From contig OZ246413.1 in assembly GCA_965231085.1 (NCBI GenBank), positions 411,234 to 475,233 of the forward strand: a DNA stretch of 64,000 bases, written 5' to 3'. The position numbers and the translations under genes are program-made. Source of the stretch: an uncultured Candidatus Saccharibacteria bacterium. GTDB lineage: Bacteria; Patescibacteriota; Saccharimonadia; Saccharimonadales; UBA10212. Below the pieces are notes generated by a model. That model saw nothing but the letters and a program-made list of their open reading frames with translations, ran no database searches and was not told the DNA's origin. Shown here piece by piece: positions 1,386-53,498 of the stretch (positions within the stretch are counted from its first letter, which is position 1; each line of letters begins with the position of its first letter).

Positions 1386-2576
1386 GTGAATATGAGCAAC
1401 ACAAAAAGACGTGTTTTGATTCTTGGGGGTGGTTTTGGGGGCACCAAAACAGCGCTAGATTTAGCCAAAGACAACAACTTTGAAGTCAGCCTAATTAGTG
1501 ACCATACGGATTTTAGATACTACCCCACACTTTATCGAACAGCAACCGGTGGTGATTCTTCTGCCTCCTCAATCCCTTTAAGCGAGATATTCCAAGACAA
1601 AAATGTCAAAGTTATTAAAGACAAAGCAATATCCATAGACCGAGCTAATAATCTAGTTAATTGCCTAAGCAAGAACTCATACCCTTACGACATATTGGTA
1701 ATCGCTCTAGGCGTAGTTACCAACTATTTTGGTATTAGGGGTTTGGAGAAATTTGCCTACGGAATCAAAAGCTTGGATGAGGCCAAAAAACTTCGCGCTC
1801 ATCTTCATGATTTGATAGCCGATGATAAAAAACCTGATTTAAATTACGTGATAATCGGGGGCGGGCCAACAGGGGTCGAGCTGGCCGGAGCTCTGCCTGA
1901 TTATCTTAAAGAAATAATGAGATCACACGGCGTGCCTAGCAAGACAGTGCACATCGATATCGTAGAAGCAGCGGCGCACCTGGTACCAAGAATGAATATA
2001 GGCTACTCCAGAGCTGTAGAGAAAAGGCTAAAAAAACTTGCGGTTAGGTTATTGCTAAAGAGGACTGTCGAAGCCGAGTCAGCCGAGTCGCTGATGGTCA
2101 GCGGCCACTCTATAAAAAGCCATACCGTGGTATGGACCGCTGGTGTTACTAATCACCCGTTCCTAAAAGCCAATGGTTTTATCTTAAACAATCACGGAAA
2201 AGTGGTAGTCGATAAGTACCTGCAAGCCGAGGACAACATTTACGTTATCGGTGATAATGCCGACACCCCATATTCCGGTATGGCCCAAACAGCGCTATAC
2301 GACGCAGTCTTTGTAAGCAAGAATATAAGGCGAGTTCATGCCGGGAAACAGTTGCATGCCTATACCCCAAAAAGGCCGGTTTACGTTACCCCCGCTGGAC
2401 GCAAGTGGGCCATTGTTCAATGGGGCCCAGTTCGATTATCTGGCCGAGTGGGCTGGTGGCTTAGAGACATTGCTGATTTTATTGCTTTTCACAGATTTGA
2501 ACCGTGGTGGAAGGCTAGCAGGCATTGGGTTGCTGAATTCGAAACAGAAAGCGAATGCCTCGTATGCAAAAAATGA
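1386..2576 (+). CDS. ndh: Type II NADH dehydrogenase (NDH-2) / FAD-dependent pyridine nucleotide-disulfide oxidoreductase
   Basis: N-terminal FAD Rossmann motif VLILGGGFGGTKTA and second dinucleotide fold VIIGGGPTGVELAG. Length (396 aa) and tryptophan-rich amphipathic C-terminus are typical of NDH-2. The track start is GTG at 1386; ATG at 1392 (MSNTKRR) is equally plausible. Confidence 0.85.
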   Translation: MNMSNTKRRVLILGGGFGGTKTALDLAKDNNFEVSLISDHTDFRYYPTLYRTATGGDSSASSIPLSEIFQDKNVKVIKDKAISIDRANNLVNCLSKNSYPYDILVIALGVVTNYFGIRGLEKFAYGIKSLDEAKKLRAHLHDLIADDKKPDLNYVIIGGGPTGVELAGALPDYLKEIMRSHGVPSKTVHIDIVEAAAHLVPRMNIGYSRAVEKRLKKLAVRLLLKRTVEAESAESLMVSGHSIKSHTVVWTAGVTNHPFLKANGFILNNHGKVVVDKYLQAEDNIYVIGDNADTPYSGMAQTALYDAVFVSKNIRRVHAGKQLHAYTPKRPVYVTPAGRKWAIVQWGPVRLSGRVGWWLRDIADFIAFHRFEPWWKASRHWVAEFETESECLVCKK

Positions 2577-3883
2577 ATCTCAGACGTAGTTTATTGCTAG
2601 GCTTTTTAGTTGCTAACTTATTGGCTGTGATATTCGGCTGGTGGCAAATCAGTGGTCAACATACGCATTCCCCAGCTCTCTGGTACATAGCGATTGGTCG
2701 ACTTAGCGGTCTAGTGGCTTCTATTACGGTACTAATTGAAATCCTAACTATGAGCCGCACACCAATTGTCGAAAACAACTTCGATATGGAAGAACTGACC
2801 TGGTTCCATAAAATAAATGGCTATCTAATGATCGGGTCTTTGACGGCTCACATCCTGTTCTTACTAGCAGGCTATGCCCTACTCGACAAAATATCTTGGT
2901 GGCACGAATTTGGGCAATTTAATTCAGGATTCTCGGACGTCTTAAATGCAACTATAGGCAGCGGCATATTTGTGGCAGCCGTTTTTGCCTCGATCAAAAT
3001 AGCTCGTAACAAACTGCCTTATCAGTGGTGGTATGCAGCTCATCTGACTTTATACCTAGCTATTGTTCTAACCTTCCCTCATATAATTAATAGTGGCGGG
3101 GATTTTATAGGTCACCCATTGTTTAGTTTCTACATGTGGGCAATTTACGGTGTCAGTTTGGGTCTTTTAGGAATTTACAGATTTTTGCGGCCTTTTTATT
3201 ACATGTACAAATACGATTTTCGAGTTCTCAGTTTTAATGCTGAAGCTAACAGAATTCATTCGGTTGTTATAGGTGGTAAAAACATTAGCAACTTCTCGTT
3301 CAGGCCAGGACAATTTGCGGTCTGGTGGTTCCTGATACCTGGTCTATGGTGGGAAGGTCATCCTTTTTCATTTTCGATAGCTCCTAACGGAAAAAATCTA
3401 AGACTGACCTTTAAGGAAAGCGGTGATTATACCTCTAGGTTAGCCAGCGGCTTAAAAGTAGGAGCCCGGGTTCTAGTCGATGGCCCACGAGGCATGTTTA
3501 CATCCCAGAGAGCCAACTCTGAAGAGGTGTTAATGATTGCAGGCGGCATAGGAGTAACTCCGATGCGAGCCATGGTAACCAGGCTACTTGACCAAGGTAA
3601 AAAGGTTACATTAATATACGCTGCTAAACGAGCCGGCGATATAGCTTTTTCGGCTGAGTTGAAAACTCTCAGCAAACAGCAAAGTTTGAAAGTAGATTAT
3701 TATATCGAAGATAAAACTGGTCGCTTAGAATCAGAGACCCTGGCGGCATACTTGCAGCCAGACCCCGTCCGTAAAACTGTATATATCTGCGGGCCACCTG
3801 CCATGATGGATTCCTTAAGGCAAGATTTAGAACAAATTGGCGTGCCAAAACAAAACATTTTGAGCGAAAGGTTCTCGTTCTAG
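2555..3883 (+). CDS. NOX/FRE-type flavocytochrome: ferric-reductase transmembrane domain (two bis-His heme sites) fused to FAD- and NAD(P)H-binding ferredoxin-reductase domain
   Basis: Six hydrophobic helices. His85-x13-His99 (WFHKINGYLMIGSLTAH) and His163-x12-His176 (AAHLTLYLAIVLTFPH) lie in separate helices. FAD motif HPFS at 269-272, NAD(P)H motif MIAGGIGVTP at 327-336, and CGPPAMM near the C-terminus. The start overlaps the ndh stop by 22 nt; alternative ATGs at 2564 and 2573. Confidence 0.85.
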   Translation: MPRMQKMNLRRSLLLGFLVANLLAVIFGWWQISGQHTHSPALWYIAIGRLSGLVASITVLIEILTMSRTPIVENNFDMEELTWFHKINGYLMIGSLTAHILFLLAGYALLDKISWWHEFGQFNSGFSDVLNATIGSGIFVAAVFASIKIARNKLPYQWWYAAHLTLYLAIVLTFPHIINSGGDFIGHPLFSFYMWAIYGVSLGLLGIYRFLRPFYYMYKYDFRVLSFNAEANRIHSVVIGGKNISNFSFRPGQFAVWWFLIPGLWWEGHPFSFSIAPNGKNLRLTFKESGDYTSRLASGLKVGARVLVDGPRGMFTSQRANSEEVLMIAGGIGVTPMRAMVTRLLDQGKKVTLIYAAKRAGDIAFSAELKTLSKQQSLKVDYYIEDKTGRLESETLAAYLQPDPVRKTVYICGPPAMMDSLRQDLEQIGVPKQNILSERFSF

Positions 3884-4554
3884 CTTTTATAGGCGATCAT
3901 TTTATAATCTGGATGGCCTGCGATATATTTAGTCGCTAAATTACCCATAACAAAGCAGGCGGTCGCCAGAACATCGGCCATAATAATATCGGGTCCGATT
4001 ATCGAAACACTACTCCAGTAGTCAGCCGGTTGCTTAGTTTTTGGATTAATAAGGTGCCTCCCTCTTTCATAATTGCCGCTCGTTGCTACGGCTTGATCAC
4101 GGAGTTCAACAACTTGTCTAATATTCATGCTATCTGCGGGGTCTTGGATACCTATACGCCAAGTCTTATCCCCCTTTGCTAATATATCGCCGCCAGCACT
4201 TATGCAGAAGGTATTCTGCCCTGATTGTTCAAGTTTTTTGGCAGCTTTAGCTATTGCCCAGCCCTTAATATAACCGTTGGCGTCAAACCGACCTGCTGCC
4301 ATCGCCGAAAAATAACCATTGGTATACCTTTTAGCCCGCTCGCAGTCTTTCAATATTTCTCTGAGTTCCGGGCTGAGATTATTATTCAGTTCGCCTCGTA
4401 TATACATAGATACTTGGCTGTCCGGTTTGTAATTACTAAAGTTCTCGTCAATCCGCTCAAATTCTAAAAAAACGAGATTAAAATAATTTTGATCTTCACA
4501 GTCGGGGATATCAACACTAATCGGCATCCCCATTATCTGAGCTACTCTGCGCAT
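3880..4554 (-). CDS. apbE: FAD:protein FMN transferase (ApbE family), short form without signal peptide
   Basis: ApbE core motifs: IMGMPISVDI (MGT-type start of the domain), TSGNYERG, and ADVLATACFVMG (metal/FAD-binding ADALxTA-type motif). The start lies 1 nt downstream of the FMN-binding protein gene. Only 224 aa, with no N-terminal hydrophobic segment. Confidence 0.8.
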   Translation of the reverse strand: MRRVAQIMGMPISVDIPDCEDQNYFNLVFLEFERIDENFSNYKPDSQVSMYIRGELNNNLSPELREILKDCERAKRYTNGYFSAMAAGRFDANGYIKGWAIAKAAKKLEQSGQNTFCISAGGDILAKGDKTWRIGIQDPADSMNIRQVVELRDQAVATSGNYERGRHLINPKTKQPADYWSSVSIIGPDIIMADVLATACFVMGNLATKYIAGHPDYKMIAYKS

Positions 4555-4555
4555 T

Positions 4556-5011
4556 TTAAACTCGAGCTTGGTCTAGGGCAGACTGAAGAGACTGCTGATA
4601 AGATTCACTAGTACTAGTAGCGCCAGATACAAAGTCGATATTAGCGCTCTGTTTTGATATTGTTGATTGCTTGAGCAGTGGCTGGCACATACGGCTAATC
4701 ATCATTGATCTTCCCATATCACTGGGCATCTGCAGGAAATTAACGTCGCTAATTTTTCCGCCACTAACAACAACTGCAACCTGGACCGTCCCGTAAGGAT
4801 TATCGAAACTTGAACCGGTAAAAGTACCGTCCTTGTAGCTAGAGCTGTTGCTCGTTGACGGCTGGTTGGAGGCTACACTATTTCCGACCGCTCCTGCAGA
4901 ATTGGTTGACGACGTCGAAATAGTAGTGTTGCTGCCGCTTTTATTTTTAACAACTAGGCCTATGCTGCCAATAATGGCAATCGTAAATACGATAACTAAA
5001 CTTTTCTTCAT
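4556..5011 (-). CDS. Signal-anchored extracytoplasmic FMN-binding domain protein (ApbE substrate, PplA-like)
   Basis: N-terminal KK plus hydrophobic anchor (MKKSLVIVFTIAIIGSIGLVV), an S/T/N-rich linker, then an FMN_bind-type domain with flavinylation motif D-F-V-S-G-A-T (Thr132). Confidence 0.8.
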   Translation of the reverse strand: MKKSLVIVFTIAIIGSIGLVVKNKSGSNTTISTSSTNSAGAVGNSVASNQPSTSNSSSYKDGTFTGSSFDNPYGTVQVAVVVSGGKISDVNFLQMPSDMGRSMMISRMCQPLLKQSTISKQSANIDFVSGATSTSESYQQSLQSALDQARV

Positions 5012-5017
5012 CTATCT

Positions 5018-5023
5018 ATTATA
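5018..5023 (-). promoter_or_regulatory. Candidate -10 box (TATAAT) 6 nt upstream of the FMN-binding protein ATG; possible leaderless transcript
   Basis: The minus strand reads AGGTATAATAGATAG-ATG. No convincing Shine-Dalgarno lies between the box and the ATG, and no good -35 was found. Confidence 0.3.
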
Positions 5024-5056
5024 CCTGGCTAAAAAATAAGACTCTGCGAGAGCAAT

Positions 5057-5089
5057 AAAAAACGAGGCTGCTCAATTTGCGCAGCCCCG
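5057..5089 (-). terminator. Rho-independent terminator after the DUF378 gene (heliorhodopsin-DUF378 unit)
   Basis: The minus strand reads CGGGGCTGC-gcaaattga-GCAGCCTCG followed by TTTTTT: a 9-bp stem with one G:U pair. The plus strand is also followed by a T-run, so it could work in both directions. Confidence 0.6.
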
Positions 5090-5114
5090 TTCATTTTTTT
5101 GTTTTTCTAGAGAA

Positions 5115-5327
5115 TTACTTGTTGCCTTTGCCCATCATCATGACCATGCCGTACAAGCTCCATACAGCTGCTAGGCCAACGATATCGTAAACAACTTTGG
5201 CCCCGGTAGAACCTACACCAAAGATTTTGTCTACTAAATTATAGTCAAAGAACCCGACTAAGCCCCAGTTTAAGGCACCGATTGTTACCAGTAGCCATGA
5301 GACCTTATCTGCTGCGTTCATTTCCAT
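5115..5327 (-). CDS. DUF378 family small membrane protein
   Basis: 70 aa with two TM helices. The motif LLVTIGALNWGLVGFFDYNLVDKIFG is characteristic of DUF378. Confidence 0.7.
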   Translation of the reverse strand: MEMNAADKVSWLLVTIGALNWGLVGFFDYNLVDKIFGVGSTGAKVVYDIVGLAAVWSLYGMVMMMGKGNK

Positions 5328-5398
5328 TTTGGATTTCTCCTTAAAGTTGTTAATAACTTAAGCATAAGCCTAATTAATATTAATGTCTACAACATTTT

Positions 5399-6193
5399 TT
5401 AGTTAGTTAAGGCCCCAGCGAATACCTGCCAAGCCAGGGCTGATTTAGCTACCAAGCTTAATATCATATATACCTTTTCACCGTACATGTAATCAGCCCA
5501 CCGCCCTATCTTTTTGTATTGTAAAAACATATTGATTGCAAAGCAGTTAAAGAACACAAATAGGGTTACATATATCCAATAAACAAAGCTTGGTATCTGG
5601 CCTAACCCGTAGTGGCTAGAGCCCCAAAAGTACAAGGCAATAACCGCCCACGGCATGATGCCAGCCAAACAACCAATTTTAAAAGCCAGCCAGTTAGTTT
5701 TTTCAGTCGTTTGGTTATGAACTTCCATGACTAGCCCCATTAAGTTCATTACTGCCGTAAATATAAAGATCATGGCTAGCACTCCAAGATCCCATAACCC
5801 CGACAGAAGTCCGATGGCCACCATCATAGTGCTGGCGCTCAGTGCATATTCAAACCACCTTGCTTTGTTGAGGCCCTTCTTCAGATTATTCTCATACGAT
5901 CTACGATAGATTGTCGCAATAACTAGATGAGCTAGAGCGCTTAGAAAAAAGAAGCCGGCCACCAGATAGGCAATGTTCACACTAAATACATGGTGCTGGG
6001 CCTGTACTAAATCTGGCATTTTACCAGTTATTGCTAGCTGGGCCGGGTCCTTAACGGTTAAGTAGGTAGTATGGACTGCCTGCACCCCGTGACCTGGTTT
6101 TGCTAAAGCCAAAATTGCAAAGCCTTGGACAGCATGCAAAAAGCCCATGAATATATTAAACTTCCTTAAACCTTTGAACGTAACTTTTGACAT
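5399..6193 (-). CDS. Heliorhodopsin
   Basis: 264 aa, 7 TM. Long collinear similarity, recalled from memory, to heliorhodopsin 48C12: FMGFLHAVQGFAILALA, ARWFEYALSASTMMV (counterion Glu), WLAFKIGCLAGIMPWAVIALYF, FVFFNCFAINMFLQYKKIGRW, and the near-identical retinal-lysine helix YMILSLVAKSALAWQVF (Lys250). Confidence 0.9.
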   Translation of the reverse strand: MSKVTFKGLRKFNIFMGFLHAVQGFAILALAKPGHGVQAVHTTYLTVKDPAQLAITGKMPDLVQAQHHVFSVNIAYLVAGFFFLSALAHLVIATIYRRSYENNLKKGLNKARWFEYALSASTMMVAIGLLSGLWDLGVLAMIFIFTAVMNLMGLVMEVHNQTTEKTNWLAFKIGCLAGIMPWAVIALYFWGSSHYGLGQIPSFVYWIYVTLFVFFNCFAINMFLQYKKIGRWADYMYGEKVYMILSLVAKSALAWQVFAGALTN

Positions 6194-20530: not shown

Positions 20531-21247
20531 TCAAATTCCACTAACGTGAAATAAAACGCCTATACCATAGGTCACTATCATCGCCATCGCTCCTCCAAGC
20601 ACAACTCTGACGATTGCCGGACGTACTGGCGCTTTGCCAACTTTCGCGCTTAATGCTCCCGTAATAAACAGTGCGACTATAACTGATATGAACGTTGCCG
20701 GAAGTCTTAGGTTCGCAGGCGGTAATAAAATTGTAATAATTGGTAGCGCTGAACCTATCAGAAATGAAATTGCGGAAGCAATTGCGGCATTCCAGGGGCT
20801 AGCAAGTTCATTGGGGTCAATTTTAAGCTCCGCCTCAGCATGAGCTGCAAAATCGTCATGCTTGGTTAATTCCTGAGCAACTAATGTTGCCGTCGAATGG
20901 TTCAATCCTTTTGCCTGATATATTTTGATTAGTTCCGCTTCTTCCATGTCGGGGTAATGTTTAAGTTCGAATTTTTCCTTGGCCAGTAAGGCTTTTTCCG
21001 TATCTCGCTGGCTACTAACCGAAACATACTCTCCAGCAGCCATGGAAATGGCCCCCGCCACAACACCCGCCACACCGGCAGTTAATATTGCTGATTTAGA
21101 TGCTTCCGCCCCAGCGACGCCCACAACAAGGCCTGATATCGAGACAATCCCATCGTTTGCTCCCAAAACTGCTGCTCTGAGCTTATTGAGCTTGGCTCCA
21201 GTTCTTTCACCGTGAACTTCTAGAATGTCATGTTTATTTTTTACCAT
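20531..21247 (-). CDS. VIT1/CCC1 family iron/manganese transporter
   Basis: LGANDGIVSISGLVVGVAGA, GEYVSVSSQRD, a cytoplasmic helical metal-binding segment and C-terminal TM helices. Confidence 0.8.
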   Translation of the reverse strand: MVKNKHDILEVHGERTGAKLNKLRAAVLGANDGIVSISGLVVGVAGAEASKSAILTAGVAGVVAGAISMAAGEYVSVSSQRDTEKALLAKEKFELKHYPDMEEAELIKIYQAKGLNHSTATLVAQELTKHDDFAAHAEAELKIDPNELASPWNAAIASAISFLIGSALPIITILLPPANLRLPATFISVIVALFITGALSAKVGKAPVRPAIVRVVLGGAMAMIVTYGIGVLFHVSGI

Positions 21248-27004: not shown

Positions 27005-27078
27005 TGGGAGTTGGCCAAGCGGTAAGGCACTGGGTTCTGGTCCCAGGATCGGGGGTTCGAATCCCTCACTCCCAGCCA
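27005..27078 (+). tRNA. tRNA-Gln (anticodon CTG)
   Basis: Cloverleaf by hand: acceptor TGGGAGT/ACTCCCA with the U1:A72 pair typical of tRNA-Gln, anticodon arm CTGGG-TTCTGGT-CCCAG, T arm GGGGG-TTCGAAT-CCCTC, encoded CCA. Confidence 0.9.
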
Positions 27079-27697: not shown

Positions 27698-28297
27698 TTA
27701 ACTAGTTAAGCGTTTTTCTACTTCGTCCCAGTTAATCAGCTTCCAGAAAGCTTCTATATAGTCCGGTCGTTTGTTTTGATATTTCAAATAGTAGGCATGC
27801 TCCCAAACATCCAGCCCCAGTAGCGGCGTTTTGCCCTCCATTAGCGGACTGTCTTGGTTAGCTGTTGAGTAAATTCCATACTGGTCACCGCTTTTAACTA
27901 ACCAAGCCCAACCAGAACCAAAGCGACTCGTTGCGGCATCGCTAAATAGTTTCTTGAATTCTTCAAAACTTCCAAATTTGGAATTAATAATTTCTGCCAC
28001 CTTGTCAGTCGGTTCATTAGCGCCACCAGGTGTTATAGTTTTCCAAAACATTGTGTGATTAGCGTGGCCGCCGCCGTTATTTTGTACGGCTGTGCGTACT
28101 TCTTCGGGCACGTTTTTAATATCGCCTAAAATTTCCTCAATGGATTTTGTTTGCCAATCTGGATACTTTTCTAGAGCTGTATTTAATTTATCTACGTATG
28201 CTTGGTGATGCTTGGAATAGTGAATCTCCATAGTCTTGGCATCTATATGTGGCTCAAGCGCGGCATAGTCAAAACCTAGTTCTGGTAATGTAAACAT
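27698..28297 (-). CDS. sodA: Fe/Mn superoxide dismutase
   Basis: [22 protein letters not shown], and [18 protein letters not shown]. Confidence 0.95.
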
Positions 28298-43737: not shown

Positions 43738-43814
43738 TGGTGGAGCATAAGGGATTCGAACCCTTGACCTCATCCATGCCATGGATGCGCGCTAGCCAAC
43801 TGCGCTAATGCCCC
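43738..43814 (-). tRNA. tRNA-Ala (anticodon GGC)
   Basis: The minus strand reads GGGGCAT-TA-GCGC-AGTTGGCTA-GCGC-G-CATCC-ATGGCAT-GGATG-AGGTC-AAGGG-TTCGAAT-CCCTT-ATGCTCC-A-CCA. The G3:U70 identity pair is present. Confidence 0.9.
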
Positions 43815-51055: not shown

Positions 51056-51143
51056 TGGTGGGCGAGGAGGGACTCGAACCCTCAAGGCTTATTCAGCCAA
51101 CAGATTTTAAGTCTGTCGCGTATACCGGTTCCGCCACTCGCCC
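51056..51143 (-). tRNA. tRNA-Leu (anticodon TAA)
   Basis: The minus strand reads GGGCGAG...ACAGA-CTTAAAA-TCTGT, a long variable arm, GAGGG-TTCGAGT-CCCTC-CTCGCCC-A-CCA. Confidence 0.9.
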
Positions 51144-51154
51144 AAGTAATGCAT

Positions 51155-51228
51155 TGGAGGCGCCTACCGGAATTGAACCGGTGTAAAAGGATTTGCAGTC
51201 CTCTGCGTAACCACTCCGCCAAGGCGCC
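51155..51228 (-). tRNA. tRNA-Cys (anticodon GCA)
   Basis: The minus strand reads GGCGCCT...GAGGA-CTGCAAA-TCCTT...ACCGG-TTCAATT-CCGGT-AGGCGCC-T-CCA. The U73 discriminator is typical of tRNA-Cys. Confidence 0.9.
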
Positions 51229-51242
51229 ATGAACTGATATAG

Positions 51243-51272
51243 ATTATACTAGAATCAGGTAGTATTTGTTCA
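51243..51272 (-). promoter_or_regulatory. Promoter candidate for the minus-strand tRNA-Cys/tRNA-Leu pair
   Basis: On the minus strand: TGAACA (51272-51267), 18-nt spacer, TATAAT (51248-51243), 14 nt upstream of the tRNA-Cys 5' end. Confidence 0.45.
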
Positions 51273-51297
51273 CTCTTAGAAGGAATGTTTTGCTTTA

Positions 51298-51326
51298 TTG
51301 AGCATTACTTCTTATTTTGTTATAAT
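51298..51326 (+). promoter_or_regulatory. Sigma70-type promoter of the plus-strand four-tRNA cluster
   Basis: TTGAGC (51298-51303), 17-nt spacer, TATAAT (51321-51326), 12 nt upstream of the tRNA-Gly 5' end. Confidence 0.6.
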
Positions 51327-51338
51327 TTACCCTGTTAT

Positions 51339-51415
51339 GCGGGTGTAGCTCAGTTGTTTAGAGCGCGTCCTTGCCAAGGACGAGGCCAAGGGTTAGAGTC
51401 CCTTTACCCGCACCA
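51339..51415 (+). tRNA. tRNA-Gly (anticodon GCC), with unusual D-loop/T-loop
   Basis: GCGGGTG-TA-GCTC-AGTTGTTTA-GAGC-G-CGTCC-TTGCCAA-GGACG-AGGCC-AAGGG-TTAGAGT-CCCTT-TACCCGC-A-CCA. The T-loop reads TTA rather than TTC, and the D-loop has GT where GG is expected. Confidence 0.8.
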
Positions 51416-51420
51416 AGTTT

Positions 51421-51496
51421 GGCTCTTTAGCTCAGTTGGTAGAGCAGAGGCCTGAAGAGCCTTGTGTCCCCAGTTCGAGTCTGGGAGGAGCCACCA
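51421..51496 (+). tRNA. tRNA-Phe (anticodon GAA)
   Basis: GGCTCTT...GAGGC-CTGAAGA-GCCTT...CCCAG-TTCGAGT-CTGGG-AGGAGCC-A-CCA. Confidence 0.9.
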
Positions 51497-51510
51497 GTAA
51501 ATTATCTTGC

Positions 51511-51595
51511 GGGCAAGTGGTGAAATTGGTATACACGCAGCCTTGAGGTGGCTGTGCCGCAAGGTGTGGAGGTTCAAGTCCTCTCTTGCCCACCA
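51511..51595 (+). tRNA. tRNA-Leu (anticodon GAG)
   Basis: GGGCAAG...CAGCC-TTGAGGT-GGCTG, a long variable arm, GGAGG-TTCAAGT-CCTCT-CTTGCCC-A-CCA. Confidence 0.9.
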
Positions 51596-51603
51596 TGAAG
51601 TTC

Positions 51604-51680
51604 GGGCGCTTAGCTCAGTTGGCTAGAGCATCTCGTTTACACCGAGAGGGTCGGGGGTTCGAGTCCCTCAGCGCCCACCA
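51604..51680 (+). tRNA. tRNA-Val (anticodon TAC)
   Basis: GGGCGCT-TA-GCTC-AGTTGGCTA-GAGC...TCTCG-TTTACAC-CGAGA...TTCGAGT...AGCGCCC-A-CCA. Confidence 0.9.
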
Positions 51681-51713: not shown

Positions 51714-53354
51714 TTAACCTCTAGGCCTGTAACCATGCTGATGAGCAAGGCTGTATCCAGAACGCATCAGTGTTTTTACTTCTTCAATACTTGAAGTTTT
51801 AACACCTGGATTTAATATGTTGTATGGATCAAAAATTGCCTTAACACTAGAGGTCAACGTAAACAATTCTTCGCCATAAAGCTGTCGAACGTACGGAGCC
51901 CTGATTCTACCCTCACCGGCCGAGGCTGTTACACTCCCACCCATTGAGGTTGCAAGATTATATAAACTTTCAGAAAGTTTAAAGAATTTTTGGCGGTCGC
52001 TAATCTCGGACAAATCAAGGCTTGGATAAACTTTAATAATACCGCTCCCTGCGTGGCCCCAAAACGAAAACGGTAAACGCGTACTACTAAAAATTGACTG
52101 GGCGCTAACTAGAAAATCTGCCAGTTTGCTTGGTGCAACACATAAATCTTCGGCTACAGGAGTTGCAGTTTTTTTACCCTGAGGTGGAATAAAAAGGGTT
52201 GCTAGGCTTTCGCTAATTCTATCGATTTTTTGCTTATCCTCGATCTTGTCGCTACCAATGTAGTCGGCCTCTACACTATCGCAAATTTTGCTCAAGCTTT
52301 TCATGCCGTGTTTTCTTGAAGATTCCTTAGGATCATCAAACTCGACTACCAAATGAACTTCCGCGCTTTGGGTTGGCAAAACACCGTTCAATATTTTTGG
52401 ATTCAATTCACCGACTTCAGCCAAAGCCGCTTTGCTTACAATCTCGCACAAGCTGGGTTTTAGACCGATGATTTGAGGCAGGGCTGTCTTTAGGTCTTCA
52501 AGTTTTTGCAAGCTAACCAAGGCTAGTGCGGTATTCTCGTTCAGTTCACGCAGAGTCATGGTTGCTTCGCTAATTATTCCCAGAGTGCCTTGCGAGCCAA
52601 CGAATAGAGGAGTCAAGTCAAAACCAGACTTATTTTTTACCTTACTTAGCTGATAGCCAACACCGTTGTACGGAGCCTCCGAGGCATATGCAAATTTTTC
52701 AATTATCTGGTAGTTGTCTTCTATTAATGCATCAAGCGCTCTATATATCTGGCCCTCAAAAGACGAGAGACCCATTTTAAAACTTAACTCCTTCTTATTC
52801 AGCGGCCCGGTTTCTATAACCTCGCCATTGGCCAACACTACTCTTAAAGAATCAACGTATCTGCCTAGTTCGCCGTATTTTACTGACCTTTCGCTAACGG
52901 AATTGTTGGCTAATAAGCCACCAATGGTTGCGCCTGCGGCGCCCCTTGGCATCGGTAAAAATAAGCCATGCGTAGACAGAGTTTGCTCAAGTTTATCGGC
53001 AGATATTCCAGACTCAAGAGTTATGTTACGTTTCTTGGCATCCAGCGACAGTATTCGGTTCATATGGGCTGGTAGATAAATTATTGCGCCAGCACCAATG
53101 GCTGCACCGGAAGTGTCGCCACCGCCACCTCTGGCGGTAACTGGTAGTTTCTTACCCCTTTCTGCTAATTGCCACGAGAACCTCATGGTTTTTCTAATGT
53201 CCTGCTCGTCTTTAGGATAAACAACAAAGGCGGGGGTTATTTCTAGAATACTAGAGTCGGTTGAGAGCAATTTCCTAACCTCAGGATTCACCGAAACCTC
53301 ACCCAACAAGTGCTCCTGCAAATAGTGTGCTATTTTACTCATCTTCCGATACAT
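51714..53354 (-). CDS. FAD-linked oxidase (GlcD / D-lactate dehydrogenase family)
   Basis: FAD_binding_4-type N-terminal half (PVTARGGGGDTSGAAIG; GATIGGLLANNS) and a FAD-oxidase C-terminal domain (GGSVTASAGEGRIRAPY...IFDPYNILNPG). An alternative start is at 53342. Confidence 0.8.
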   Translation of the reverse strand: MYRKMSKIAHYLQEHLLGEVSVNPEVRKLLSTDSSILEITPAFVVYPKDEQDIRKTMRFSWQLAERGKKLPVTARGGGGDTSGAAIGAGAIIYLPAHMNRILSLDAKKRNITLESGISADKLEQTLSTHGLFLPMPRGAAGATIGGLLANNSVSERSVKYGELGRYVDSLRVVLANGEVIETGPLNKKELSFKMGLSSFEGQIYRALDALIEDNYQIIEKFAYASEAPYNGVGYQLSKVKNKSGFDLTPLFVGSQGTLGIISEATMTLRELNENTALALVSLQKLEDLKTALPQIIGLKPSLCEIVSKAALAEVGELNPKILNGVLPTQSAEVHLVVEFDDPKESSRKHGMKSLSKICDSVEADYIGSDKIEDKQKIDRISESLATLFIPPQGKKTATPVAEDLCVAPSKLADFLVSAQSIFSSTRLPFSFWGHAGSGIIKVYPSLDLSEISDRQKFFKLSESLYNLATSMGGSVTASAGEGRIRAPYVRQLYGEELFTLTSSVKAIFDPYNILNPGVKTSSIEEVKTLMRSGYSLAHQHGYRPRG

Positions 53355-53411: not shown

Positions 53412-53498
53412 GGGCGAATGGCGGAACTGGTAGACGCGCTAGCTTCAGGAGTTAGTGACCGCAAGGTCGTGGAGGTTCAAGTCCTCTTTCGCCCACCA
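53412..53498 (+). tRNA. tRNA-Leu (anticodon CAG)
   Basis: GGGCGAA...CTAGC-TTCAGGA-GTTAG, a long variable arm, GGAGG-TTCAAGT-CCTCT-TTCGCCC-A-CCA. Confidence 0.9.

Follow-up and report, generated by a model that had tools for sequence, protein, structure and literature searches.

The window analysed here is a 64,000-nt stretch of DNA from an uncultured Candidatus Saccharibacteria bacterium of the order Saccharimonadales (GenBank assembly GCA_965231085.1, contig OZ246413.1, positions 411,234 to 475,233). At positions 1386-5011 it carries four genes, encoding a type II NADH dehydrogenase (NDH-2), a NOX-type di-heme flavocytochrome, the flavin transferase ApbE and an FMN_bind protein. Comparison with the closest relatives makes it very probable that the NOX-type gene has replaced, in place, a gene for an NqrB/RnfD-like membrane domain fused to an NAD-binding domain, the resident ApbE and FMN_bind genes being kept. 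We further consider it likely that the locus specifies an NAD(P)H-driven, self-contained transmembrane conduit reducing a membrane-anchored surface flavoprotein. The features of the locus are as follows (E-values are those of Pfam profiles):

1386-2576, plus strand: NDH-2 homologue, 396 aa (Pyr_redox_2, 5e-41)
2555-3883, plus strand: NOX/SpNOX-type flavocytochrome, 442 aa (Ferric_reduct, FAD_binding_8, NAD_binding_1, NAD_binding_6)
2807-3082, plus strand: codons of the putative heme-ligand histidines (H85, 2807-2809; H99, 2849-2851; H163, 3041-3043; H176, 3080-3082)
3359-3799, plus strand: dehydrogenase motifs HPFS at residue 269 (FAD), GGIGVTP at 330 (NAD(P)H) and CGPP at 412
3880-4554, minus strand: ApbE-type FAD:protein FMN transferase, 224 aa (ApbE, 3.3e-42)
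4556-5011, minus strand: signal-anchored FMN_bind protein, 151 aa (FMN_bind, 5.8e-09)
5018-5092, minus strand: boundary of the FMN_bind-ApbE unit (terminator hairpin 5063-5092, TATAAT 5023-5018)

The four open reading frames (ORFs), their motifs and their overlaps all lie where a preliminary description of the window had put them, and the profiles it had proposed as a check (Ferric_reduct, FAD_binding_8, NAD_binding_6, FMN_bind, ApbE and Pyr_redox_2) all matched. Judged by the profile E-values and the conserved synteny reported below, the gene identities, motifs and gene order are far past chance. Identical proteins are encoded on a 669-kb NCBI contig and on Logan contigs. All four proteins have Candidatus Saccharibacteria or Saccharimonadales as their named relatives, so that the earlier guess at a minimal genome of the candidate phyla radiation (CPR) type was reasonable.

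By sequence and modelled fold, the product of 2555-3883 is a di-heme flavocytochrome of the NOX/ferric-reductase-domain (FRD) type and of the SpNOX family. Residues 1-207 make up a six-helix ferric-reductase domain (Ferric_reduct, 5.3e-13) and residues 208-442 an FAD/NAD(P)H dehydrogenase domain (FAD_binding_8, 9.9e-06; NAD_binding_1 (PF00175), 8.7e-15 at residues 327-422; NAD_binding_6, 1.1e-06). Two histidine pairs, H85-x13-H99 and H163-x12-H176, sit on helices 3 and 5, and all four residues are invariant across a 30-sequence alignment in which identity falls to 23%. The HPFS, GGIGVTP and CGPP motifs reported earlier are present; among homologues the HP of the first, the GxG and P of the second and the CG of the third are likewise invariant, and the first P of CGPP is nearly so. 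Also invariant is the phenylalanine of the ERF motif, F440 (F434 in 436-aa numbering; codon 3872-3874), aligned to SpNOX F397, whose role has been described (PMC11564096). The top solved relative by sequence is SpNOX itself (8qt6; 8.6e-21 over residues 66-442). An AlphaFold2 (AF2) model built with 30 homologues (pLDDT 92.4, pTM 0.87) gave whole-chain Foldseek TM-scores, normalised to query length, of 0.73-0.78 to SpNOX (8qt6, 8qta and 8qq7) and 0.68-0.71 to human NOX2. Profiles, sequence and fold matches to SpNOX and the invariant histidines thus bear out the di-heme NOX-type identity first proposed for this protein.

Hydropathy and the AF2 model agree on six helices, with loops obeying the positive-inside rule, and both place the histidine pairs within hydrophobic helices, as had been expected. 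Because the positively charged loops fall on that side, the N-terminus and the dehydrogenase domain are predicted to be cytoplasmic. The heme ligands of SpNOX are H69/H129 (inner) and H83/H142 (outer), with the same x13 and x12 spacing (PMC11564096); by analogy, H85 and H163 would hold the inner heme and H99 and H176 the outer one.

The FMN_bind protein opens with MKK and a hydrophobic anchor (residues 3-21, nt 4949-5005), that is, a dibasic N-terminus and an 18-residue hydrophobic segment, with no clear cleavage site or lipobox. A linker of 38 residues (25-62) follows, with 13 Ser, 5 Thr and 5 Asn, and then the FMN_bind domain (residues 63-151), which carries the flavinylation motif DFVSGAT with Thr132 (codon 4616-4618). 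This domain matches 8p2a (5.5e-16), the crystallised SaFMN3 domain of Streptomyces azureus that ApbE flavinylates. Hydropathy, the linker count and the Pfam match therefore sustain the earlier picture of a signal-anchored, S/T-rich FMN_bind protein with this motif. Given the dibasic N-terminus, the 18-residue anchor and the Ser/Thr-rich linker, the FMN domain is predicted to lie outside the cell and to be membrane-anchored (N-in, C-out). A second substrate for ApbE was not seen, there being no further D..[ST]G[AS][ST] motif among 67 ORFs of the window.

ApbE conserves KGW, GGD, TSGxYERG, His167 and D194/T198, which are invariant in 26 homologues; His167 aligns with the catalytic-His position of Vibrio cholerae ApbE, and the AF2 model (pLDDT 91.8) has Foldseek TM-scores (normalised as before) of 0.84-0.89 to Ftp, FmnB and ApbE structures. 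Its N-terminus, MRRVAQIMGMPISV, is the first strand of the fold. No export signal was found in this ApbE or in any orthologue of the fetched loci, and the 150 nearest ApbE cluster representatives show neither a hydrophobic segment ahead of the first strand nor an anchor elsewhere. A separate homologue search yielded at least 120 further ApbE clusters, many from Saccharimonadales, whose proteins are just as short (217-262 aa). Candidate FMN_bind-ApbE fusions and membrane anchors elsewhere in this short-ApbE subfamily were rejected, the longer N-termini being low-complexity read-through in high-GC genomes. Characterised bacterial ApbEs typically carry a signal peptide or a lipoprotein anchor and thus act outside the cytoplasm. 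Extracytosolic flavinylation by ApbE, as assumed in the preliminary description, consequently fits the target, which is signal-anchored and has the motif, but not the enzyme, which has no export signal.

These features of ApbE lend some weight to a different arrangement, in which the FMN domain would be cytoplasmic (N-out, C-in) and flavinylated there, serving as an intracellular flavin carrier, either donor or acceptor for the dehydrogenase domain, with no surface flavoprotein at all. The absence of a signal peptide here and in the 150 nearest clusters, together with the shortness of the others, speaks for it, as does the precedent of cytoplasmic ApbEs with cytoplasmic targets, such as the second ApbE of Klebsiella pneumoniae (PMC12052999). 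Nevertheless we regard this arrangement as improbable: the dibasic N-terminus and hydrophobic segment predict the opposite orientation, the S/T/N-rich linker (P/S-rich in Dormibacterota) is typical of cell-wall-spanning proteins, homologous subunits of the NqrC/RnfG type lie outside the cytosol, models exist of MsrQ-FMN_bind fusion proteins (PMC11334425), and a transmembrane di-heme wire would be purposeless. If the FMN domain is outside, the signal-less ApbE can be accounted for in three possible ways, namely flavinylation before export, misjudged topology or an unconventional route of ApbE to the outside. Export of a pre-folded flavoprotein by the twin-arginine translocation (Tat) system was also considered and is unlikely, since the N-terminal pair in the window is KK; it is KK, RK or KR in Saccharibacteria, and RR only in a minority of Dormibacterota. 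A signal-less ApbE with an exported-looking target suggests a gap in the accepted maturation picture of flavinylated proteins.

Gene junctions at the locus are tight. NDH-2 and the NOX-like gene overlap by 22 nt, as described earlier, if the longest NOX ORF is taken; in a public annotation the gene begins at ATG 2573 (P0001, 436 aa, 100% identical), and the overlap shrinks to 4 nt (ATGA). Both candidate starts are compatible with translational coupling, and the two genes are probably co-transcribed. The ORF coordinates also agree with the earlier description of a convergent unit on the other strand, FMN_bind then ApbE, with 1 nt between the FMN_bind stop and the ApbE ATG; at their 3' ends the convergent NOX and ApbE genes share 4 nt. 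The FMN_bind-ApbE pair is assigned from its flanking signals as a transcription unit of its own. Hairpin 5063-5092, 3' of the DUF378 gene, is an intrinsic terminator (folding energy −21.2 kcal/mol, z = −3.6; none of 200 shuffled sequences was as stable), and a perfect TATAAT (5023-5018) stands 6 nt ahead of the FMN_bind ATG (5009-5011, minus strand), with no Shine-Dalgarno sequence. Because the TATAAT is this close to the ATG, the mRNA may be leaderless. A scan for promoter and terminator consensus sequences around the NDH-2 start gave nothing informative, and an Rfam scan of the window returned tRNAs only and no riboswitch (e.g. the FMN riboswitch).

The association of these genes was surveyed in 80 reference-genome loci containing NOX relatives, found with an 11-sequence alignment. 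In 38 of the 80 loci the NOX homologue has genes for both ApbE and FMN_bind no more than 10 kb away, and these trio loci come from Saccharibacteria, Dormibacterota and some Actinobacteria. The layout of the window (NOX, then tail-to-tail ApbE and FMN_bind on the opposite strand) recurs in nine Saccharibacteria-like loci; in about 30 Dormibacterota and a few Actinobacteria loci, NOX and FMN_bind share a strand and ApbE comes after them or a few kb upstream. The claimed genetic tie of the NOX-like gene to FMN_bind and ApbE is therefore real. The co-occurrence of all four genes that had been suggested does not extend to NDH-2, which adjoins NOX at none of the 80 loci (in one of them a copy lies at a distance of 8 kb). 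Nor is it NDH-2 that precedes NOX in L082, a metagenomic relative.

The history of the locus becomes apparent when it is compared with the relatives of its NDH-2. Hundreds of Saccharimonadales homologues of NDH-2 are 58-68% identical to it, whereas the best NOX homologue reaches 46% only. Around the closest NDH-2 relatives the gene order matches that of the window, Zip-(FUR)-MFS-NDH-2-[slot]-ApbE-FMN_bind-DUF378-heliorhodopsin-ABC, and the flanking orthologues are 65-85% identical. The slot in these relatives holds a 504-516-aa fusion of an NqrB/RnfD-like domain with NAD_binding_1, profile-confirmed in three of them (PF00175, 3e-13 to 1.4e-15; PF03116, 3.8e-09 and 5.7e-11, sub-threshold at 2.8e-04 in L085). 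Twelve distinct relatives, including those from a metagenome scan, had an NDH-2 of at least 56% identity and enough downstream sequence to be counted: the NqrB-NAD gene comes right after NDH-2 in 10 of the 12 and nothing does in the other two, and NOX is found there in the window only. Wherever relatives have enough downstream sequence, the NqrB-NAD gene faces ApbE and FMN_bind. The resident genes of the window side with those of the NqrB-type loci:

Window ApbE: 54-58% identical to that of L083, L084 and L087 (NqrB-type), 52% to L085, 35-46% to NOX-type loci
Window FMN domain: 75-78% identical to that of L083, L084 and L087 (NqrB-type), 60% to L085, 33-62% to NOX-type loci

In neighbour-joining trees both proteins nest within the NqrB-type clade. 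The ferredoxin reductase (FNR)-like domains of the two conduit types are only 27-29% identical, which indicates that the whole conduit gene was exchanged and not its membrane half alone. Replacement of the conduit with its partner genes kept is good genetic evidence that both conduits reduce the FMN_bind protein from NAD(P)H. The four-gene synteny of the preliminary description thus exists in this Saccharimonadales sub-lineage, but normally with an NqrB-type conduit. NDH-2, found next to a conduit gene in at least 11 related genomes of the sub-lineage, is by the same comparison a core Saccharimonadales gene whose usual neighbour is the NqrB-NAD fusion; its earlier inclusion as a general component of the module has to be dropped.

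Two gene pairs accompany the locus in this sub-lineage. A divergent Zip/FUR-family pair, then an MFS transporter, is conserved directly upstream of NDH-2. A pair of small ORFs with no Pfam match, encoding a secreted-looking, coiled-coil-like protein of about 200-250 aa and one of about 95 aa with an N-terminal hydrophobic helix, moves within the locus: it occupies the gap between NDH-2 and the conduit gene in two relatives and that between ApbE and FMN_bind in another, and is not in the window.

Zip/FUR pair: L001 6044-7260 (just upstream of window position 1); L085 5178-6396; L086; L088
Mobile small-ORF pair: L083 9242-10161; L084 5770-6740; L087 3761-4794

With hemes and flavins loaded, we infer that electrons would take the following path. 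In the cytoplasmic dehydrogenase domain of the NOX-like protein, NAD(P)H would hand a hydride to FAD, and single electrons would then cross the membrane by way of two hemes b, the inner one at H85/H163 and the outer one at H99/H176. The outer heme would reduce FMN held covalently on Thr132 of the FMN_bind protein, where ApbE would have installed it from FAD, and the reduced flavoprotein would pass electrons to an external acceptor, for which O2 on the one hand, and Fe(III) or some other metallic or organic oxidant on the other, are about equally plausible. Such a direct path from NAD(P)H through FAD and two hemes to a surface FMN, already proposed in the preliminary description, is the most economical reading given the NOX identity and the trio linkage. 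In a fermentative, cofactor-scavenging Saccharimonadales cell it could serve as a quinone-free outlet for reducing equivalents or as a surface reductase.

NDH-2 need not take part in this chain, because both conduit types carry their own NAD(P)H site. Its nearest solved relatives are the Caldalkalibacillus enzyme (4nwz; 4.6e-38 over residues 7-365), then Bacillus subtilis YjlD and Staphylococcus aureus NDH-2, and it has GGGFGG at 14 and GGGPTG at 158, marking two GxGxxG folds, and AQTA (AQxA, near the quinone site) at 300. These matches and motifs identify it as an ordinary type II NADH dehydrogenase homologue of the quinone-reductase family, and for that reason it is most likely a co-regulated, parallel NADH sink outside the chain, which would feed scavenged membrane quinone. 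Scavenging of both heme and quinones has been reported for Saccharibacteria (PMC6031116). In another relative from this phylum, L004, CydA (1.4e-91), a UbiE/MenG-type methyltransferase and UbiA lie within 5 kb of its own trio (UbiA, the UbiE/MenG-type methyltransferase and cytochrome bd subunit I at L004 6026-7537 and 14884-16221), from which it appears that some members of the phylum combine the trio with quinol oxidation. The term quinone-independent, used earlier for the module, is accordingly fair for the NOX route itself; it cannot be extended to the cell from 64 kb, and it is contradicted if NDH-2 is counted in.

An active part for NDH-2 is the essence of a route like the extracellular electron transfer (EET) of Listeria monocytogenes, in which NDH-2 would reduce a membrane quinone that passes electrons on to the surface FMN protein, the NOX-like protein being an accessory. 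The translational coupling of NDH-2 to the conduit gene, its conservation as upstream neighbour in at least 11 related genomes and a weak match of the FMN_bind protein to the PplA model are in keeping with this. That match, however, is 23.8 bits against a cutoff of 325 (NCBIfam NF041941), and the protein has one FMN domain and no lipobox Cys. No EetA/EetB, DmkA/DmkB or FmnA-like genes were found in a Pfam scan of 29 ORFs of the window (NCBIfam was added for six), the NDH-2 is of the standard 396-aa YjlD/Caldalkalibacillus type, NOX trios occur in 38 other genomes with no adjacent NDH-2, and each type of conduit binds NAD(P)H by itself. We therefore hold a Listeria-type route to be very improbable; the analogy to Listeria EET drawn in the preliminary description fails for want of a PplA-type lipoprotein and of the Eet and Dmk proteins among the scanned ORFs.

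Two acceptors have been considered within the direct path. In the first version the flavoprotein would be an assimilatory surface ferric reductase, turning extracellular or chelated Fe(III) into Fe(II) for uptake. Méheust et al. found VIT1 in 153 clusters of their MsrQ-like systems and proposed iron assimilation (PMC8238504), and chelation of ferrous iron impairs the growth of Bifidobacterium breve mutants in SifE (a membrane-anchored FMN_bind protein) or apbE (PMC5449479). In the lineage of the window, Zip and FUR genes are found 1.5-3 kb upstream, and the window itself contains a VIT1-family transporter (20531-21247, minus strand; 5.5e-70). Yet this VIT1 is 15 kb from the module, and SpNOX is a very poor ferric reductase in vitro (kcat 0.05 per second; PMC11564096). 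Among the 38 trio reference loci VIT1 is within 10 kb in two and FUR in two, links too weak to support an iron function from co-localisation across relatives. A search for a Fur/Zur operator common to the Zip-FUR intergenic region and the region upstream of NDH-2 produced nothing beyond a 10-mer with a single mismatch, roughly the chance expectation for AT-rich regions of 100 nt, and no palindrome was found upstream of NDH-2. We consider this version possible, if somewhat unlikely.

The second version is a surface NAD(P)H oxidase, in which the hemes, the flavoprotein or both would reduce O2 to superoxide or H2O2, for NAD(P)+ regeneration or for scavenging or production of reactive oxygen species at the surface. 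SpNOX consumes O2 (PMC11564096), SaFMN3 (−184 mV), the closest solved relative of the FMN_bind protein, takes O2 as acceptor, a Fe/Mn superoxide dismutase is encoded in the window (27698-28297, minus strand), and the heliorhodopsin gene beside the locus suggests a lit and therefore oxic habitat. But SpNOX is without the O2-reduction centre of eukaryotic NOX enzymes and the authors of that work question a physiological role of O2 as acceptor (PMC11564096); a covalently flavinylated partner with its own maturation enzyme would be superfluous for mere O2 reduction, and the dismutase gene is 23 kb away. This version too we consider possible, if somewhat unlikely. The VIT1 and dismutase genes are relevant to these ideas and neither is linked to the module; the hints at iron and those at O2 are weak and equally indirect.

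The slight iron linkage and the chance-level operator candidate are among several points that weigh against the surface conduit and the history that we propose for it. The pairing of a signal-less ApbE with an exported-looking target means a departure from the textbook, either in topology or in when flavinylation takes place. The adjacency of NDH-2 and a conduit gene in the related genomes could reflect a hidden functional link. The scavenging of heme and quinones makes cofactor loading dependent on outside supply. The neighbour-joining trees of ApbE and FMN_bind carry no bootstrap support.

Outside the clades with flavinylation genes, the NOX family keeps other company. It adjoins a signal-peptide rubrerythrin in 15 loci of the Planctomycetes-Verrucomicrobia-Chlamydiae (PVC) group and Elusimicrobia, a secreted cupredoxin in 4 and DsbB in 4. 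The rubrerythrin gene stands 0-300 nt ahead of NOX on the same strand and encodes an N-terminal signal peptide and, behind the rubrerythrin domain (Rubrerythrin, 2.3e-24), a rubredoxin-like tail; the pair suggests NAD(P)H-driven periplasmic peroxide reduction. Cupredoxin and DsbB may be additional partners outside the cytoplasm. In 14-16 of 39 trio loci, genes for an OmpR-type response regulator and a histidine kinase are found nearby, within a few kb and mostly within 1-2 kb. Homologues of the kinds seen in the relatives (two-component system, CydA, UbiE, UbiA, rubrerythrin and DsbB) are absent from the 64-kb window. The neighbours concerned are:

Rubrerythrin directly upstream of a NOX homologue: L039 9219-9869; L042, L046, L047, L049, L052, L056, L057, L060, L061, L071, L077, L079, L080
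Cupredoxin and DsbB-family neighbours of NOX homologues: L023 3936-4412; L055 9501-9944; DsbB in 4 Patescibacteria loci
OmpR-type regulator and histidine kinase, about 0.5-1.5 kb upstream of NOX: L002 8238-9925; L005 12521-14199; L017, L025, L028, L033, L037, L038, L043

Since different clades pair NOX with different extracytoplasmic proteins, we take the family to be a modular wire, driven by NAD(P)H, that serves redox proteins outside the cytoplasm. In line with this reading, SpNOX has a very exposed outer heme and reduces cytochrome c directly and efficiently; it has no O2 site of the eukaryotic type, and its authors noted that a protein acceptor may exist (PMC11564096). SpNOX serves as a structural model of the human NADPH oxidases, and a NOX tied genetically to a flavinylated partner, and exchangeable for an NqrB-type conduit, supplies a concrete candidate for such an acceptor.

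The points that go beyond the preliminary description are the conduit swap, NDH-2 as a core gene of the lineage and the signal-less ApbE; of these, the swap and the ApbE deserve the most attention. A wider proposal would join the swap to bacterial NOX enzymes with protein acceptors in place of O2, interchangeable conduits and pre-export flavinylation by a cytoplasmic ApbE in Saccharimonadales, Dormibacterota and Actinobacteria; taken as one package it is speculative, and we would not expect all of it to hold. Were it true, bacterial NOX-family enzymes would have dedicated protein acceptors in vivo rather than O2, flavin-based and heme-based conduits would be functionally interchangeable modules, and the FMN-threonine adduct would cross the membrane, a maturation route undescribed for ApbE systems. 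Among Saccharimonadales, electron export based on flavinylation seems to be common, the locus with a short, signal-less ApbE being present in many lineages, and for ultra-small fermentative epibionts it would offer a compact means of disposing of reducing equivalents or of reducing extracellular substrates.

The genes around the module encode DUF378, heliorhodopsin, an MFS transporter and ABC transporters. Immediately next to the flavinylation locus, the heliorhodopsin gene (Pfam, 8e-91) forms a pair with a 70-aa, two-helix DUF378 gene; the closest relatives retain this arrangement, with 79-96% identity, and a literature search found no paper naming heliorhodopsin together with DUF378. Elsewhere the window has nine tRNA genes and an FAD-linked oxidase (FAD_binding_4 and FAD-oxidase_C, D-lactate-dehydrogenase-like), which may feed membrane or soluble acceptors:

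Heliorhodopsin/DUF378 pair: window 5115-6193, minus strand; L083 13015-14093; L084 9611-12414; L087 5356-6441
tRNA genes: six clustered at 51059-51677, others at 43741-43814, 27005-27075 and 53412-53495
51714-53354, minus strand: FAD-linked oxidase

Several known systems resemble the locus in part. With SpNOX (PDB 8qq7, 8qt6; PMC11564096, PMC11031084) the NOX-like protein shares domain order, size class, the x13/x12 histidine spacing, HPFS, GGIGxTP, the C-terminal aromatic residue and the fold, in spite of an identity of only 21-22%. For SpNOX no partner protein has been reported, and its assays used O2 and cytochrome c; the gene in the window has a linked flavoprotein gene. Escherichia coli MsrPQ likewise pairs a di-heme membrane protein of the ferric-reductase-domain type with a soluble extracytoplasmic redox partner, but MsrQ has no fused dehydrogenase domain and is fed by quinol or Fre, and its partner is a molybdoenzyme that is not flavinylated. 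The Listeria locus (Ndh2, DmkA/B, EetA/B, FmnA/B, PplA) combines NDH-2, an ApbE-family protein and an FMN surface protein in a single-membrane cell; unlike the present one, it routes electrons through demethylmenaquinone and EetA/B, its PplA is a two-domain lipoprotein and its FmnB an exported lipoprotein, and none of these traits is seen in the window. The NQR/RNF-like two-subunit systems (an NqrB/RnfD-like and NAD-binding fusion with an NqrC-like FMN_bind subunit; PMC8238504, PMC11334425) occupy the same chromosomal slot in the closest relatives, with orthologous ApbE and FMN_bind genes, the tail-to-tail layout and the same proposed direction from NAD(P)H to the outside; their membrane domain is unrelated, being of the flavin-based NqrB type and not of the heme-based FRD type.

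The closest precedent is the MsrQ-like class of Méheust et al. (2021), defined by a PF01794 protein clustered with ApbE or FMN_bind (PMC8238504). These authors listed 1,797 such clusters in 1,468 genomes, mostly of Actinobacteria, and in 1,437 of these clusters the protein ends in a PF00175 NAD-binding domain. NAD(P)H was their suggested electron source on the cytosolic side; they pointed out the kinship with NOX and STEAP and put forward iron reduction for clusters in which VIT1 co-occurs (PMC8238504). A follow-up modelled MsrQ-FMN_bind fusion proteins (PMC11334425). The class calls for a Ferric_reduct gene within five genes of ApbE or FMN_bind; here the two are the next two genes. The locus also has in common with it the six-helix, two-heme PF01794 protein with C-terminal PF00175, clustered with both genes, and the proposed passage of electrons from NAD(P)H to an extracytosolic flavinylated protein. 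By gene content and order the window trio is thus a member of this published class, which is itself known from genomes, and the central idea of the preliminary description rediscovers it; the module cannot be called new, as the NAD-binding fusion and the NAD(P)H donor had both been described. Méheust et al. required a SignalP-positive target gene and called flavinylation under-represented in CPR (PMC8238504), and this filter may explain why CPR scored poorly; a literature search found no paper naming Saccharibacteria together with ApbE. Three features set the locus apart from the class: it is from Saccharimonadales and not from Actinobacteria, its ApbE has no export signal and its FMN_bind protein is signal-anchored in a way that is not clearly of the SignalP type, and its operon includes an NDH-2 gene.

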